Part shown: piece after piece, positions 19,238 through 48,400 of the stretch
Numbering within the stretch: position 1 is the stretch's first letter
Layout: each line of letters begins with the position of its first letter
NCBI GenBank assembly: GCA_030295235.1
Contig: AP026154.1
Span: 248,001 to 312,000 of the forward strand
Length of the DNA stretch: 64,000 nt
Source: Fistulifera solaris
Taxonomy: Eukaryota
Reading direction: 5' to 3'
The notes under the pieces: model-generated
The model's input: only the letters and a program-made list of their open reading frames with translations
Database searches by the model: none
Told to the model about the DNA's origin: nothing
Position numbers and translations under genes: made by a program

Positions 19238-21115
19238 CTACATCATACCGCCCATTCCACCCATGCCGCCCATTCCTCCCATGGGTGGGCCTCCACCACT
19301 GGGCTCTGGATTGTCCACAATCATACTCTCCGAGGTAGTCAATAGACCTGCCACAGAGGAAGCATCAACGATAGCCGTACGTGTGACTTTGGTGGGATCA
19401 ATGATACCTTGTTCGACCATGTCGCAGTACACGCCATTTTGGGCATCAAAACCGAACGTGACGGGAACGTCAGCTTTGGTCAATTCACCACAAACAACAG
19501 CGCCTTCGTGGCCAGCATTCTTCGCAATTTGCGAAATTGGTGCTCGGAGCGCGCGCATGATAATTTCGACACCAATCTTTTGATCCATATTGGTAGCCTT
19601 ATCGGCAACTTCCTGCAACTTGGTCGAGCAGTAAAGAAGCGCCTTACCACCACCAGGCACGATACCTTCCTCCACAGCAGCCTGAGTAGCATTCAAGGCA
19701 TCAATGACACGATCTTTCTTTTCCTGTACTTCAACATCGGACGCACCACCGACATGAATGACAGCCACACCACCGCCGATCTTGGCCAGTCGCTCTTGCA
19801 GCTTTTCGCGCTCGTAATCACTCTTGGTAGTTTCGATGGAATGACGGATAAGTTCACAACGCTCCTCAATCACGGCCTTGTCACCGGCACCATCTAGAAC
19901 AATGGTGTCATTCTTGGTGATGGTAACCTTTTGCATTTGCCCAAATGTTGGGGCTGGACTTCTTCCAATTTCATGCCCATCTCTTCCGAAATGACGGTAC
20001 CGCCCGTAAGAATGGCCAGGTCTTGCATGGTGGCTTTGCGGTTGTCCCCAAATCCAGGTGCCTTAACGGCACATACTTTAATGCCCGCACGGAGTTTGTT
20101 AACGACCAAAGTCGCCAAAGCTTCGCTTTCGACGTCTTCGGCAACAATGAGGAGGGACGCCTGACTCTTAATAACCTGTTCCAAAAGAGGCACCAGTTGC
20201 TGCAGATTACTGACTTTCTTTTCCACGAGCAAGATGTAAGGGTTCTCCAACTCGCAGACTTGTGTCTTGGCATCGGTAATGAAATACGGGCTAATGAAAC
20301 CCCGATCAAACTTCATTCCCTCCACAACTTCCAATACATTCTCGAGCGTCTTGCCGTCTTGTACGGTAATGACACCTTCCTTTCCGACTCGTTCCATGGC
20401 ATCGGACAGGAGATCACCAATTTCCTTATCCGAGTTGGCACTGATCGTACCCACTTGACTGATTTCTTCCTTGGTACTAATGGGTCGACTGATTTCTTCC
20501 AACGTCTTGACGACCGTTTGCACGGCCAAGTTAATACCACGATACAGATCCAACGGATTCAATCCGGCCGCCACCGACTTGCAACCTTCCGAATAAATGG
20601 CCCTAGCGAGTACGGTGGCCGTAGTAGTTCCGTCTCCGGCAATGTCGTTGGTTTTGGATGCGACGCTCTTGATGAGTTGAGCACCCATGTCCTCGAATTT
20701 GTCTTCAAAATCAATCGCCTTGGCGACAGTGACGCCGTCTTTGGTGATTTTGGGTGGACCGTATGGTTGTTGAATGATGGCATTGCGTCCTTTCGGACCG
20801 AGTGTGACCTAAAGGGAAAAGAAATTGCCATGTAAGAGAGGGAGGATCAGGAACGTCAAAACACGAAAAGGTCGAAATCCAGATTTACAAGAGAAACAAA
20901 GATCCAAATTCCCTCTTGTACGACCGCTACGTAGCAATTCTGCGTACATAAGGAATCTCGAATTCACGATTCCTTACCTGGACCGCATCGGCCAACACAT
21001 CCACACCGCGCAACATGGCGGCACGCCCTTCCACGCCAAATTTGATCTCCTTGGCAAAGCCACGAGAAATAATTCGTGCCTTGCGTGTTTGATGACGAAG
21101 AGTAGAAGTCAACAT
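19238..21115 (-). CDS. HSP60: mitochondrial chaperonin 60
   Basis: Presequence then [27 protein letters not shown] and a GGM tail. Intron 20809-20977. One-base frameshift at 19929-19932. Confidence 0.97.
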
Positions 21116-37116: not shown

Positions 37117-37810
37117 TGTTATTGTTCGATAAAAGATTGGATATTCGTTTTATGTTCTTTTGGTTGACAACAACTCGTTGTCTTTGGTCCCTTGATTGTT
37201 TGGTTCCCTGAAAATGGACGGAGTCAGAAGGGTCACGCAGTTTAGTAACGTGTTTTGATCGGGTGATTCCTTCCAGGTTCCGCACCACTCAACTATCCCC
37301 TTTATAGTGCTGTCGACGTCAAGACTAATGAGGATTGCCACCAAAGAGTACAAAGTGCCAATGTGAGGCCCGCTCTCAATTCTTATAGGTCCTCTCCAAG
37401 ACCACCGAACGTTGAAGATTCACTTACAGCCATCCATTTTGTTTCCGGCTTGGCAACACGAGAATTCTCAACACGTGCGGTTCGGACAGTACAAAAATCA
37501 TGACAGCGGTATTCTGCAGACCGACCATATTCGTCATGCCACGTCACACGTAATGAAGGCTCCAAGTACTACGAAACTCACATACAAGAAAGTGGCAAGA
37601 TTTTTTCACTGTTGGCGTCAGAATGTGCATACTCCGCACAAAAGTACTCTTTGAAAACCGGAAGACGACGGAGGGACGTCGTGAAAAATGTCTGTACGCC
37701 CGCCCCCCCACAAAATTCACTGCCAAAATAATGATACCTTCATTTGTTTTCATCTTCCGATGTCACAATAGAACAAAACATTCCTTTTCTTAGTTCATGA
37801 GAAAGCAACT

Positions 37811-39939
37811 ATGATCAACATACGAATCATTGTTATGGATTTTCCATCCCACAGGACTTGGGCAGAGGGATATCAGCGCTGGACGGAGAAACACTCCGAT
37901 CTCTATCAAGTTCGTCTCACACTCATTTCAGGAGAGAAGTGGAAATTTCGCATGTTGAGTGGAGGCGCTACATCGATCGATGACTCTCACAATGAGGATG
38001 ACGATATCATAATCTTGGATGGGATGTTTGACGCCTCTGTCGTAAAAAGCACGCTCGGGGCATCGGAAAGTTCTCGTCTATTTGCACGAGAACCAATTGA
38101 CGACACCGTATTCATCACAAGACCGTGACCAGAAGAAGCAAACTTCGTGGCATTTCGGGATGGTTCACTATCGATCGCTACTCGCCGCAGACGGACTTCT
38201 CTTTAACAGTTATACACAGCTTCGGGACTTTCAAAGGGCTCTGCCTCGCATGTTGAAGGAACAATGCCCTTCCGATGAAATCGATTGGCATTTAGAAAAG
38301 TGTCACCAACTGTTTAGTTCAAAGTGTACATTTCTGCACAACGGACTAGAACTAGAGGATTTGATCAGAATTCCTCTGGATGAAAACGAACCGAAAGCGA
38401 TTGGTAGATATAGAGCACCTATCATTTTGTGGAACGCTCGACTGGAAGAATACAAAGATCCGGGTTCGTTTCTGGAAATGTTAAAACTAGTCAAGAAGGG
38501 ATCCAATGTCAATTTTCAATTAATCGTTCTTGGGACGGACCCTACAAAAGACCAACGATGGTATCAAAAGTTCCACGATGAAGTTGGAGACGAACAGATA
38601 TTGTTTATGGGCTGGTGTAATGATCGAAAAGAATACGCGAAGTATCTTCGCTTATCTGATATTGTGGTTAGTACGGCCCGTCATGAGACCTTTGGTATTT
38701 CTATAGTCGAAAGCGTATTTTGCGGTGCATTGCCGTTGCTTCCGAATCGACTCTCCTACCCCGAACTGTTTTCACCGTCCACATTTGGCGCATACCATTT
38801 GTACGAAAACCCGTTGCACGATGGTGTCACCAAATTAATATCATTGTTGCAAGTCGTTACCGCCCACCCAGATACCGCCAAAGCGATGCAATGCCAAGCT
38901 AAAGAAGCCGTAACACGATTCCGATGGCAAAGCATGGGCCCCTTGTACAACCGAGTGTGGTCAAGTATACTTCTGGGAAAACCGATCGGAGCTCTGAAAG
39001 ATAACGAACCGATTTTGTCCAACAAGGAACAGCTACCTTCCGAAGACAAGATAATTGAAATCACCGATGCTTCCGATCCTCGAGTACAGTTGTACCGTCC
39101 CAAAAGTCTGCGAAACCACGCTTTGTACCATCAACAACTCGAGGCTTTGCAAATTGCTCCTGTATTGCATGGAGGTCGACGTGCCATGGTTCGTATGGTA
39201 GAAGCCATTCAGCTGGGTGCCAACATTCGACCCTTGTCTTTTTTTGACGACGCGTGCCTTAGCACAGTATATAGAACATGGTAGTTCGACCCAGGTACCC
39301 ATTTATACGGTGGACAACATTCGGTTGTTAAATGAAATACGTGGCCAAAGCATCAATTCCGGAGATGCCATTTTATCCATGATCCAATTTCCCATTGCGT
39401 GTCCGATGGAAACCATTCGACCGCCCATATTAATATTGAGTCAAGTCCGGAATGCCGAGAACGTGGGCAGCTTACTCCGCACGGCGTATTGTTTGGGCAC
39501 CATCCAATCCGTGCTGTGCGGAGACCCCATATCCTGGGCGGCGGTCCGAGACAGTCGAGCGGCTCGCTGCAGTATGGGTACTGTCTTTTATCACAAATAC
39601 TATCGCACGGACGACTTGCCAGCGACTTTATTGCAATTGCGACAAGATCAAGGTATGTGTGTGTACGGGATCGAGATTAACGAGCGGGCAGCACCATTGG
39701 AGCACCATGCCGATCACGACGGCGTCAATGACGGAAAATGGGCCATGGTGATGGGCAATGAGGATGCTGGCTTATCCGTAGACGTGGAAGCCGCATGTGA
39801 TAAAATCCTGTATATTCCACAAGCTCACGGCGATTCCTTGAACGTGGGACACGCGGCTGCCATAGCCATGTACGAACTAGGAAAAGGATCTCTCTCGCAG
39901 CCGCTTGTTTCTCACGACGGTCGAGGAGCGTGTCCGTGA
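37811..39939 (+). CDS. GTDC1/QTMAN-like glycosyltransferase fused to SpoU/TrmH RNA methyltransferase
   Basis: SHRTWAEG, KWKFRMLSGG, YLHENQLTTP, ILWNARLEEYKDP and STARHETFGISIVE...LPNRLSYPEL, then VRNAENVGSLLRTA, VMGNEDAGLS and SLNVGHAAAIAMYE. Single-base shifts at A5 38044-38048 and T7 39239-39245. Confidence 0.82.
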
Positions 39940-39984
39940 CAGATACTGTACAACGAAGGCACGTTGCTTTCTTCTGTTTGCATG

Positions 39985-40848
39985 TTATGACTCGACACGA
40001 ATGGGACAATACGCTTGCCGGGCTGGTACTTGCACCAAGGTGCCTTGTGGCAATATCACTCCGGTCAATACTTTTCCGTAACAACATCCGGTATCCAATC
40101 CCAGTGCTTTTGGGTAGGTTTGCAATCCCCGCTTGGCATCATGTCCAAAAATAACTTTGTAGGACGACGATGGGTGTTCCTCCCAAACACGTGCCCACGG
40201 TTGTTGATGGATATCTCGCAAAAGAATCATATCTTGGGGTGATTGTTGCTCCAAGGGTACACCCGGCATGAAACCAGAATGTACAATCATGGTTTGAAAT
40301 GGCTCCAACCATATCGTATAGGGCAATTCGTTCATCCATTGGATGTCTTGGGCCGTCAGTTGACTCGTCCACGCGTACTTATGGTTCTTGTTGTTTTTGT
40401 TGTTGTTGTTGTTCTCATCCTTCTCCTTCGAGGAACCATGATGACGAATAATATACCGTAAGACCCCTTCTTCATGATTGCCGCGTACCATATACCAGTT
40501 CGGTTGTGTTCGAACATGTTGCAGAGCCTGATACGATTTCGGACCTTTGTTGACCAGATCACCGACACATACAATGGCATCAAAGTCTTGCCCGTTGTCC
40601 AGTTGTTGCCGTGCTCGTTCGTACAAATCCACCATTTCGTCATAACAACCATGCACATCGCCAATCACGAGGACTGTGGGATTTTGTTTGGGAAGTGACA
40701 ATATTTGATGGGGTTGCGATGGAGACTGTGTGACGAAAGTGGGAGACGAAGTATCACCGAAACACGTCACGAATGTCGTCGTCGTAACGGCCACGGCCGC
40801 TACGAGTAGTTTGGGTGATCTGTTCAAAGCGCGCACTCGAGAAAGCAT
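39985..40848 (-). CDS. ApaH-like metallophosphoesterase (bis(5'-nucleosyl)-tetraphosphatase / Ppn2-like)
   Basis: IGDVHGC, VGDLVNKGP, VRGNHE, IVHSG, IFGHDA and LDTGCCYG. Confidence 0.92.
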   Translation of the reverse strand: MLSRVRALNRSPKLLVAAVAVTTTTFVTCFGDTSSPTFVTQSPSQPHQILSLPKQNPTVLVIGDVHGCYDEMVDLYERARQQLDNGQDFDAIVCVGDLVNKGPKSYQALQHVRTQPNWYMVRGNHEEGVLRYIIRHHGSSKEKDENNNNNKNNKNHKYAWTSQLTAQDIQWMNELPYTIWLEPFQTMIVHSGFMPGVPLEQQSPQDMILLRDIHQQPWARVWEEHPSSSYKVIFGHDAKRGLQTYPKALGLDTGCCYGKVLTGVILPQGTLVQVPARQAYCPIRVES

Positions 40849-41638
40849 GCTGGGTATTAAATATGTTAACGGTGACCGACGAATAAGGAAAGGGAAGGAA
40901 AGGGAGGGAAATCAACAATACTAGATTCCGCAAATTGCCCGAAATACAACAACACGAACAATAAAAGAAGAAAAAGCAAAATCCAAAATCCGGGTACTCC
41001 GTTTGTTGATAATTTTTCCTCACGATGAGGCCTACTTTATTGTACGTGAGAAATACGTAGACTTATTTTTCGAAGCGATGCCCTGTCCCTCGTCTCCATG
41101 TTTCGATGTCAAATCCAATTCGCTTCTTACTTATTCGAAAAATAGATGTTTTATTGGTAATCGAAAAATAAATGTTCATGAATCGTTACTATTGACTTAA
41201 ATTTATTTGAATCTAAGCGGTTCTGTCGCTCGTGCGAAGTTGATGAACCGACACAAGGAGAAAGAAAATTTTGAAGCGAAAATCGATTAGCAAGAATGAG
41301 ACGATAAAAAAGCCTTTTCTTGTGAGAACGTCTAAAGCGAAGCAAGATGCTTTTGAATATTGTCAGAGAATGGCGTCAGTATGTTTCTCGGCTTTCGGAG
41401 AGCTTTGGTCGGCAATGTTTTCTCTATCGACAATGAATGTTCGAACGTTGGCAAGACCTAAAAGCCGATAAATCGGCACTCTTACCCTCAAGGATCGCCA
41501 AGAAACTGCTCATTTACAAGCCGCATAATCATACGAAAGAGTATTGAGTTGAGAAACAGCAAAAGTTACGCGAAATTCGATTGAAAACGCTAGTTTGATG
41601 TCGATAGCGACGAAAGAAATTTGTTGAGGAACGAAGGT

Positions 41639-46539: not shown

Positions 46540-48400
46540 ATGGGAAACGAGCCTTCGAAAAAGGTTTTTGGAGGCAAACGCTCCACAGGTAAATTTTATT
46601 GTGTTATTTCGTGCGAGAAGAACTGTCATCAGCCAATTTTGGTTACGCTACTGCGTTTGCTTCATCCCTATTTTTTGCGTCGCTAATTCGTCTCACTTGC
46701 TAATCCATGTCATTGCGTCAACTCGCTCAACAAACAGAGGAGTCTTCGAAAAAGTCGCGCCCTAACTCAAAGCATGTTCACATAGACGTGAAAGAGAACG
46801 AAAAGAAAAAACACCACAAAGGGAAAGAAAATGGAGCAGCTTGAATCCGCAAGTACATTTGGCCAACCTACTGCCCCCATCCAGTTTCGAAAAGTTCATA
46901 CTCCGGTCATGATTACGGATGCCTTGTCGGATGTTCGCGTCAACTATCACATCGACCCCAAAGAACTGGGCCACGGTCATTACGGTGTCGTTCGAAAATG
47001 CATGCATCGAGAAACGGGTGAAGTGTATGCCATCAAGTCAATCCGCAAATCGAAAGTCAACAAAATTGAAGTTTTGAAACGAGAAATTGAAATACTCAAA
47101 GAAGTGAAACACCCGCACATTATTCAGTTGTTTGATGTGTACGAAGATGAACGTTACTTGCATCTCATTACAGAGCTCTGTACTGGAGGAGAATTGTTCG
47201 ATCGGATCATTGCGAAAACACAATCCGCGGAAGGCCACTTCTCGGAGCACGATGCGGCGTTACTTGTGCGAGACATTCTCGACGCCATTCGTTATTGCCA
47301 CGATGAAAAACAAATCGTACATCGAGATCTGAAGCCCGAGAACTTTCTGTTTCTTACTCCTGCCGAAAACGCGCCTGTGAAAATTATCGACTTTGGACTC
47401 TCGCGACATGACGATGCTCACCAAGGGATCATGCAAACGAAGGTCGGGACACCGTACTATGTTGCACCGGAGGTATTACGGCGGGAGTACACGAAGATGT
47501 GTGATATTTGGTCAATCGGAGTCATAACCTATATTCTGTTGTGTGGATATCCTCCATTCTACGGCGATTCAGACACTCAGATTTTTGAAAGTGTCAAAGT
47601 AGGGCGATTCGATTTTCCGTCGCCGGAATGGGATGATATAAGCAAGAGTGCGAAAGCTTTCGTGACCGAAATGCTCCAAAAGGATCCAGACAAACGGTAA
47701 GTCGCGTAAAGTGTATTGCAGCAATGGCGCTTTAAACTCATTCCATGGTTATCGCCGGCGCAATTGTTTATTCAGGCCTGATGCTTCACAAGCACTGAAA
47801 CACAAATGGCTGAAAGAACAACTTGGTGAAACAGAGCCATCGTCGCTCAGAGCATCTACTCTATCGCACGCCAGTCTACGAACAGGAGAGTTTGCAAACT
47901 ATCTTGCAATGAAGAAGCTGCAAAAGGCTGCGTTGGGATACATTGCCACAAATTTAACGCAGGCGGAAGTAGGAACACTCGAAGAGCTATTCAAAGCACT
48001 GGATCGCAATGGATCAGGGACGATATCTTTGACAGAATTGGATGAAGCTATAGCGCAAGGAAACTTCTCCGAAAGTGTCATCAATGAAATCCGAAGGCTT
48101 CGTGTTGATCTAGAGTTATCGGACGAAAGCAAATTAAATTACAAAGATTTTGTCGCCATGACGATGGATCGAAGTTTGGCTCTACGGGAAGACAACATGC
48201 GCATAGCGTTTGAACACTTTCGTCACACCGAAGCCGACTATTTAACTGTGAAAGATTTGGGAGATATTTTTGGTGAAGCTCAAGCGCTCGACATGATGAA
48301 CATCCTAGACACCGACGGTGATGGTCGAGTTTCTTTTGAGGATTTTAACAAGGCCATGGTGAAGAGCATGTCACAGGATGTAAATGTAGGCATTTCATAA
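46540..48400 (+). CDS. CDPK: calcium-dependent protein kinase (CDPK), predicted N-myristoylated
   Basis: MGNEPSK exon 1; introns 46589-46737 and 47697-47775; LGHGHYG, HRDLKPEN, DFG and APE; EF hands DRNGSGTISLTEL and DTDGDGRVSFEDF, with the middle two degenerate. Frameshift at A run 46806-46811. Confidence 0.93.

Follow-up and report, generated by a model that had tools for sequence, protein, structure and literature searches.

The stretch of DNA analyzed here, hereafter the window, comprises 64,000 nucleotides (nt) of the diatom Fistulifera solaris (GenBank assembly GCA_030295235.1, contig AP026154.1, positions 248,001 to 312,000 of the forward strand). Our analysis concerns a gene at window positions 37811-39939 that appears to encode a glycosyltransferase of the QTMAN/DUF3524 family fused to a SpoU-type 2'-O-methyltransferase. 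As deposited, the gene is spread over three overlapping open reading frames (ORFs), which can be joined into one coding sequence (CDS) for a protein of 708 amino acids (aa). The features of the locus, in window coordinates, are as follows.

37772-38128, plus strand: ORF1, stop to stop, with its first ATG at 37811 and the preceding stop at 37769-37771.
38046-39284, plus strand: ORF2, shifted +1 relative to ORF1.
39202-39939, plus strand: ORF3, shifted +1 relative to ORF2.
37811-38047, plus strand: CDS part 1, aa 1-79, the start of the QTMAN_N domain, colinear with residues 1-79 of the relative P0001 and identical to the public protein P0121.
38044-38048, plus strand: frameshift site 1, an A5 homopolymer with one A surplus to the joined reading.
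38049-39242, plus strand: CDS part 2, aa 80-477, the remainder of QTMAN_N, the C-terminal Rossmann domain of the GT4 unit, the linker, and the first part of the N-terminal SpoU domain.
About 38982-39050, plus strand: linker, aa 391-413.
About 39051, plus strand: start of the SpoU module at aa 414, IIEITDASDPRV, inside ORF2.
39239-39245, plus strand: frameshift site 2, a T7 homopolymer with one surplus T.
39244-39939, plus strand: CDS part 3, aa 478-708 and the stop codon at 39937-39939, the remainder of the L30e-like domain and the SPOUT catalytic domain.
About 39417, plus strand: end of the L30e-like substrate-binding domain, at about aa 535.
About aa 536-695, plus strand: SPOUT catalytic domain, with motifs N550-G552-R556, N649-E650-G653, and S675-L-N677.

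Joining segments 37811-38047, 38049-39242, and 39244-39936, which restores the frame by dropping a single A from A5 and a single T from T7, yielded a stop-free reading of 79 + 398 + 231 = 708 residues. All 708 of its residues agreed with the public F. solaris protein GAX19770.1 (P0121, locus tag FisN_37Lh041), a hypothetical protein that is 87.6% identical to its homeolog P0122 (FisN_37Hh041) and 89.8% identical to P0001. The locus is very probably an intact nuclear gene, the L-subgenome copy FisN_37Lh041, of a Fistulifera-type raphid diatom. The original prediction for this DNA had proposed that the three ORFs form one protein of about 708 residues upon removal of single bases from two homopolymers, that a SpoU-like N-terminal peptide already lies in the glycosyltransferase ORF before the second shift, and that the downstream ORF has no ATG near its start. 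The database match bears out the first proposal; IIEITDASDPRVQLYR sits within ORF2 ahead of the second frameshift, and about the first 60 codons of ORF3 contain no Met, as the second and third required. The three Pfam domains named in that prediction were also all found across the three ORFs. ORF1 matched profile positions 11-75 of QTMAN_N (PF12038) at 18.8 bits, alone below the cut-off, ORF2 matched positions 83-167 of the same profile at 49.0 bits and also Glycos_transf_1, and ORF3 matched SpoU_methylase (PF00588) at 91.1 bits (cut-off, 29.7).

We analyzed the two frameshifts with Logan contigs from four small runs of one organism, aligned to window positions 37600-40100; these runs may be the source data of the assembly, and whether they are DNA or RNA was guessed. 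At site 2, two contigs without mismatches, one from each of two runs (X1 record 6, 39048-39339, and X2 record 12, 39190-39541), both omitted one T, as did the homeolog-type contig X1 record 7. Site 2 is a homopolymer over-call by direct contig evidence, and the contigs contradict T7 and hence the stop codon at 39282-39284. The suspicion of a surplus base raised in the original prediction was upheld less directly at site 1, which was bridged solely by homeolog-type contigs (X1 record 3, 8 mismatches, and X2 record 9, 21 mismatches). Both have A4, but no zero-mismatch contig spans the window's own copy. Site 1 is therefore very probably an over-call as well, on contig evidence from the homeolog type only. 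Run X1 contained no window-type cover of 38046-38188, which we took to be a popped assembly bubble and evidence for neither side. The contigs of the four runs covered intergenic DNA evenly, which, together with the uncertain kind of the runs, makes them uninformative on transcripts or expression.

These data bear on whether the window copy is instead a recent pseudogene in which one or both shifts are genomic, leaving homeolog FisN_37Hh041 as the only functional copy. The deposited sequence does read A5 and T7, one copy can decay in an allodiploid, and, as a point against an intact gene, the zero-mismatch contig X1 record 1 stops at 38045, inside the A5 run. However, a decayed copy is difficult to reconcile with T6 in zero-mismatch contigs from two runs at site 2, with a public protein record at the locus that equals the full 708-aa reading, or with the codons that follow the first shift (398) and the second (231), all of which stay open. 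Furthermore, the shifts are confined to the A5 and T7 runs, the only homopolymers of at least 5 bases in the 2.1-kb CDS, a pattern characteristic of sequencing error. We consider a pseudogene improbable and both frameshifts very likely to be single-base homopolymer over-calls that arose as sequencing artifacts. Both sites are slippery homopolymers, which would favor programmed ribosomal frameshifting or transcript slippage in vivo. Nevertheless, T6 was found in the reads at site 2, relatives encode the protein in a single frame, and no precedent is known for two programmed +1 shifts within a single gene, making a bypass of this kind a negligible prospect. An over-call explanation implies that the assembly contains homopolymer indel errors that disrupt genuine genes.

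Introns were ruled out as the cause of the shifts, because the 708/708 match leaves no residue missing at either junction. For comparison, a real, canonical intron of about 79 nt (GTAAGT..AG, 47697-47775) occurs within the window, where it connects the protein-kinase and EF-hand ORFs of a CDPK-like gene (46792-48397, plus strand). Upstream of the start codon of the fused gene, 102 nt are absent from the homeolog-type contig X1 record 2 (window 37683-37786; ends AA..CT); this gap is a length difference between the subgenome copies and not an intron.

The N-terminal half of the protein (aa 1-390) carries both domains expected of a QTMAN-type glycosyltransferase. In P0001, which served as a stand-in for the window reading, QTMAN_N scored 75.5 bits (cut-off, 25); Glycos_transf_1 (PF00534) scored 51.7-54 bits in the searches with the window ORFs and P0001. 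An AlphaFold2 model of P0001 built from an 84-row alignment had a mean predicted local distance difference test (pLDDT) score of 91.8, with residues 403-410 as the sole low-confidence internal segment. Residues 1-390 of this model adopt a GT-B fold, which GT4 retaining transferases matched at Z scores of about 30 (range, 25-31), including sucrose-phosphate synthase, BshA, MshA, and the mannosyltransferases PimA and PimB'. A sequence search for a solved GTDC1-like structure returned none and just two weak GT4 matches. The E-x7-E motif, which we take to be family defining for the GT4 domain, is present as E292-x7-E300 within HETFGISIVE. Both glutamates were invariant in all 36 fused proteins aligned, as were H92, E93, Q95, P99, K215, P217, and H291, and the motifs H-E-N-Q and W-N-x-R-x-E-x-x-K-x-P were invariant or nearly so in the same 36 rows. 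On the basis of profiles, motifs, and predicted fold, we assign residues 1-390 to the retaining GT-B/GT4 glycosyltransferases of the QTMAN/DUF3524 family.

In the C-terminal half, the 295 C-terminal residues modeled alone gave a pLDDT of 92.4 and a predicted template modeling score of 0.90. This model matched entire two-domain SpoU enzymes, the best being 5kzk (Z 22.9, 250 residues aligned, root mean square deviation of 3.0, model residues 1-285) and YsgA 7qiu (Z 22.8, model residues 1-278 against chain residues 1-248), followed by RlmB (Z 22.0), 2i6d (21.8), AviRb (21.2), and a nosiheptide-resistance enzyme (21.2). Over model residues 122-288, which correspond to the SPOUT catalytic fold, TrmH 1v2x matched at Z 19.4 and the methyltransferase domain of TARBP1 at Z 20.4. 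In BLASTP, residues 415-692 of the window protein aligned with residues 5-266 of the standalone 278-aa bacterial enzyme P0149, opening with IEITDASDPRV against IEITDPADPRL. An alignment that begins almost at the first residue of a standalone enzyme, together with the match to whole two-domain folds, supports IIEITDASDPRV as the true N terminus of the SpoU module, in agreement with the earlier suggestion that this segment belongs to the RNA-binding part of a SpoU enzyme. The Pfam substrate-binding models PF08032 and PF22435 were not detected in the N-terminal domain at an E value of 0.1 or better. Its L30e-like domain has basic motifs of the fused clade, D-x-R-V-x-L-Y-R-P-K-S-L-R and H-G-G-R-R. 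Considering both alignment and model, aa 414-695 are best described as a complete bacterial-type two-domain SpoU enzyme consisting of an L30e-like, putatively RNA-binding domain and a SPOUT 2'-O-methyltransferase domain that is presumably knotted.

As for which SpoU enzyme this module resembles, the best NCBIfam model was RlmB (TIGR00186; 80.5-80.7 bits), below its equivalog cut-off of 160.15, and TrmH (NF008295) scored 27.2-29.7 bits against a cut-off of 227. With both scores under the cut-off, the protein can be assigned to neither RlmB nor TrmH specificity. The SPOUT motifs aligned with those of 7qiu, and N550, G552, R556, N649, E650, G653, S675, and N677 were the same in all 36 fused proteins aligned, with neighboring motif positions almost as constant; likewise, N137, G139, R143, E237, G240, S262, and N264 were invariant in 64 SpoU family rows. 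We presume from the family literature that the conserved residues of the GT4 and TrmH/RlmB motifs are catalytic, and from these motifs both halves look active. Fusions often recruit domains for binding, and no methylated target is known, so the SpoU module could be conceived as a catalytically silent handle that only binds RNA or dimerizes on behalf of the glycosyltransferase. Invariance of all three SPOUT motifs across the 36 fused proteins and 64 family members is not expected of a dead domain, however, and we regard a silent module as highly improbable.

Fused proteins were found well beyond this locus. PF12038 and PF00588 occurred together in at least 16 relatives of ORF2 among the 120 matches listed, and a second search for relatives contained at least 42 such proteins by our count, again among 120 matches listed. 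An exhaustive phmmer search with P0001 against 1.84 billion representatives recovered five full-length fused proteins at the 50% level (P0242-P0246), plus fragments. The fusion is present in F. solaris (two homeologs), Nitzschia sp. Nitz4 (700 aa), N. inconspicua (779 aa), Cylindrotheca closterium (774 aa), C. fusiformis (737 aa), and a complete ORF from an MMETSP transcript (706 aa). Among choanoflagellate entries, P0246, recorded as Didymoeca costata, is a complete ORF from a transcript, and P0478 from Stephanoeca diplocostata (754 aa; cluster mate of P0020) has all three domains. Fused orthologs, which the original prediction had suggested seeking in other stramenopiles, are thus present in Nitzschia and Cylindrotheca. 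The fusion recurs in raphid pennate diatoms but is not restricted to them, as it also occurs in the transcriptomes of two loricate choanoflagellates. Altogether, we regard the fusion as almost certainly real.

To place the fused proteins, we built a quick maximum-likelihood tree of the glycosyltransferase half from 74 rows, none of which was dropped: 36 fused proteins (hand-picked), 36 bacterial proteins (from several hundred), P0294, and P0021, so that the tree covers fused and bacterial proteins only. The fused proteins formed one clade with a support of 100 in the SH-like approximate likelihood ratio test (SH-aLRT), and the bacterial proteins were separate (100). The two choanoflagellate proteins paired (98) outside the diatom-like clade (84). 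This topology is compatible with the fusion having arisen once, and it speaks against the choanoflagellate records being simply contaminated with diatom sequence.

Three further observations concern the fused proteins. Their occurrence in diatoms and in siliceous loricate choanoflagellates matches the odd distribution of silicon transporters, for which PMC5100055 discusses diatom-like transporters in loricate choanoflagellates and a possibly ancient transfer. The C-terminal tail H-D/N-G-x-x-x-C-x (window 39913-39936) is kept in the diatom fused proteins P0001, P0002, P0003, P0011, P0012, P0400, and P0401 (HDGRGACP, HDGKAACT, HDGLAACT, HNGWGACV, HDGCAECK) and is lacking in the choanoflagellate proteins. 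Finally, in the fused relative P0393 (879 aa, from a Logan contig), QTMAN_N and the glycosyltransferase domain are separated by a Myb DNA-binding domain, which may reflect intron read-through in a metagenome gene call.

We also examined the gene neighborhoods of bacterial DUF3524 proteins in the best 80 of more than 600 genome matches. Downstream ORFs from 69 of the 80 loci were analyzed with Pfam, and 75 upstream neighbors were covered by targeted SpoU and TGT searches only. Directly downstream of DUF3524 (n = 69), there were 0 SpoU, 1 TGT, 2 ProRS, and 11 Abhydrolase_1 ORFs, and profile searches found SpoU within 6 kb in 3 of the 80 loci and TGT in 1. This scarcity means that gene context provides no independent support for a queuosine link. 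The three loci with a nearby SpoU gene were L023 (2948-8592) and L038 (2377-8096), both from Desulfuromusa metagenome-assembled genomes and both with the order DUF3524, prolyl-tRNA synthetase, a 409-aa ORF, and SpoU, and L036. The 11 alpha/beta-hydrolase loci (L011, L014, L018, L021, L032, L037, L044, L064, L065, L071, and L072) were mostly from Saprospiraceae, with the hydrolase nearly always on the same strand as DUF3524; this adjacency is likely lineage synteny.

Combining both halves, we lean, by a little, toward the locus being an intact gene for a 708-aa bifunctional enzyme that would add a hexose to an RNA and methylate a ribose. In such an enzyme, the SpoU module would bind an RNA hairpin loop and methylate a ribose, while the tethered transferase would add a hexose to the RNA bound by the SpoU module. 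By family analogy, the hexose acceptor would most likely be queuosine-34 of a GUN-anticodon tRNA. The QTMAN/GTDC1 mannosyltransferase, identified recently, mannosylates Q34 of tRNA-Asp from GDP-mannose and is the only characterized member of the QTMAN_N family, and glycosyl-queuosine has been described for animals (PMC11755703; bioRxiv 10.64898/2026.06.28.735034). An alpha-mannoside product would be in keeping with the predicted retaining GT4 fold. None of the fused proteins has a presequence ahead of the first beta strand, which points to a cytosolic or nuclear protein and RNA target. SPOUT enzymes are dimers, and the diatom protein would thus probably dimerize through its SPOUT domain.

The gene structure, the fusion and its conservation, the modeled folds, and the intactness of the catalytic motifs are results of this analysis, and the RNA substrate, the sugar, the methylated position, and the coupling are inferences from them. 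Several findings weigh against queuosine-tRNA. The nearest relatives of both halves are uncharacterized bacterial proteins. Among the matches listed, those closest to the glycosyltransferase half outside the fused clade were bacterial DUF3524 proteins at 30-38% identity; animal GTDC1 did not appear among the 120, 120, and 150 matches listed, and the Atlas clusters listed were all bacterial, which indicates no more than that bacterial proteins outscore it. Among solved structures, the SpoU half is closest to 23S rRNA enzymes (YsgA, RlmR, RlmB, AviRb, the thiostrepton- and nosiheptide-resistance enzymes, and MRM3), and the one-domain tRNA enzymes TrmH, TrmJ, and TrmL match its catalytic domain alone (model residues 122-288). 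The bacterial gene context, in which SpoU and TGT genes are rare near DUF3524, belongs on the same side. Thus, of the bifunctional RNA-modifying enzyme put forward in the original prediction, the architecture of QTMAN_N and GT4 followed by SpoU in one protein stands, while the link to tRNA is weakened by a SpoU half that most resembles rRNA enzymes.

Considering these points, the same fused enzyme could act on a substrate other than queuosine-tRNA: its SpoU module would methylate an A-loop-like hairpin of rRNA or some different RNA, and its transferase would modify another nucleoside or a small molecule, the latter being the acceptor of many GT4 enzymes. Consistent with such a substrate are best solved matches of the C-terminal half that are all 23S rRNA 2'-O-methyltransferases, RlmB as the best NCBIfam model, uncharacterized bacterial proteins as the nearest relatives of the glycosyltransferase half, TGT in just 1 of 80 bacterial loci, and small-molecule GT4 enzymes among the structural neighbors (BshA, MshA, and tetrahydrobiopterin glucosyltransferase). 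However, the RlmB score of 80.5 bits is far under its cut-off, there is no organellar presequence, and SpoU enzymes are not known to carry out ribose methylation of eukaryotic cytosolic rRNA, which is performed by small nucleolar ribonucleoproteins and Spb1-type enzymes. In addition, QTMAN_N is family specific and its sole characterized member acts on queuosine-tRNA, and a methyltransferase that binds RNA hairpins, when tethered to a transferase, argues for an RNA acceptor. We consider a substrate other than queuosine-tRNA somewhat unlikely. By comparison, action of the transferase on queuosine in tRNA is a tentative assignment that falls a little short of probable.

A more specific proposal is that the enzyme of raphid diatoms and loricate choanoflagellates forms hexosyl-Q34 and, within a single binding event, 2'-O-methylates a second nucleotide close by in the same anticodon stem-loop. 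This is speculative and in its full form unlikely; if true, glycosylated queuosine would not be specific to animals, and the fusion would be a Rosetta stone predicting that the widespread bacterial DUF3524 transferases are functional partners of a family of uncharacterized bacterial TrmH-like enzymes. Given that animals and choanoflagellates are sister groups, it is also conceivable that animal QTMAN descends from a fused ancestor that lost its methyltransferase. More generally, the fusion provides a testable hypothesis that a queuosine sugar or similar modification occurs in algae and choanoflagellates coupled to ribose methylation, and it hints at the targets of hundreds of bacterial DUF3524 proteins. 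A genome-editing method for F. solaris is reported in PMC13276009 and makes a functional test feasible.

The protein is already public as a single 708-aa entry, to which UniRef automatically gives the name tRNA-queuosine alpha-mannosyltransferase, and relatives have been double labeled as SpoU/glycosyltransferase by a metagenome pipeline. Our literature search found no paper on the fusion, although the original QTMAN identification paper fell outside this search. Searches for DUF3524 by name found no papers, the QTMAN literature contained none on algae by title or abstract, and searches combining GTDC1 with SpoU and queuosine with diatoms found nothing relevant to the fusion among the papers listed. 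The locus tags FisN_37Lh041 and FisN_37Hh041 did not appear in the supplements of PMC5935921. PMC4029402 mentions in passing, with data not shown there, that diatoms have TGT homologs.

Elsewhere in the window, a calcineurin-like metallophosphoesterase gene (39985-40911, minus strand) is convergent with the fused gene. The two stop codons are 45 nt apart, and the 3' untranslated regions of the two genes must therefore overlap. A Cpn60/TCP-1 chaperonin gene (19241-20808, minus strand) is present as two overlapping ORFs covering profile positions 8-314 and 332-489, with about 90 surplus nt between them; the surplus is probably an intron, with a frameshift as the less likely alternative.

Relative to known systems, the diatom protein shares with QTMAN/GTDC1 the domain pair of QTMAN_N followed by GT4 Glycos_transf_1 and a retaining GT-B fold. 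In contrast to the animal GTDC1 enzyme, which is about 458 aa and is not known to have a SpoU domain, the diatom protein adds a complete C-terminal SpoU methyltransferase, and bacterial DUF3524 proteins are closer to it in sequence than any animal protein among the matches listed. Those bacterial proteins (about 360-390 aa), also labeled tRNA-queuosine alpha-mannosyltransferase domain-containing, which are also the nearest Atlas clusters, match aa 1-390 over their full length and have the HENQLT, WNxRxExDKxP, and E-x7-E motifs in common with the fused proteins, but they are standalone, without a SpoU fusion, and fall in their separate clade of the tree.

For the C-terminal half, the closest system is the two-domain group 3 of SpoU enzymes (YsgA/RlmP 7qiu, RlmR 9h1k/9muj, RlmB 1gz0, S. 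meliloti 5kzk, AviRb, TSR/NHR, and MRM3), which align along their entire length at Z 21-23, with family profile E values of 5e-40 to 1e-35 and all three motifs in common. Unlike these enzymes, the diatom module sits behind a glycosyltransferase, scores below every NCBIfam equivalog cut-off, and has its own conserved basic motifs in the L30e-like domain. The closest nonfused relatives of this half are standalone dinoflagellate SpoU proteins (P0308 of Gymnodinium smaydae and P0338 of Polykrikos kofoidii), which are 33-39% identical over the whole module and share the D-A-R-D-P-R-V-x-V-Y-R start with the fused proteins, but which have an N-terminal extension of 70-120 aa and no glycosyltransferase.

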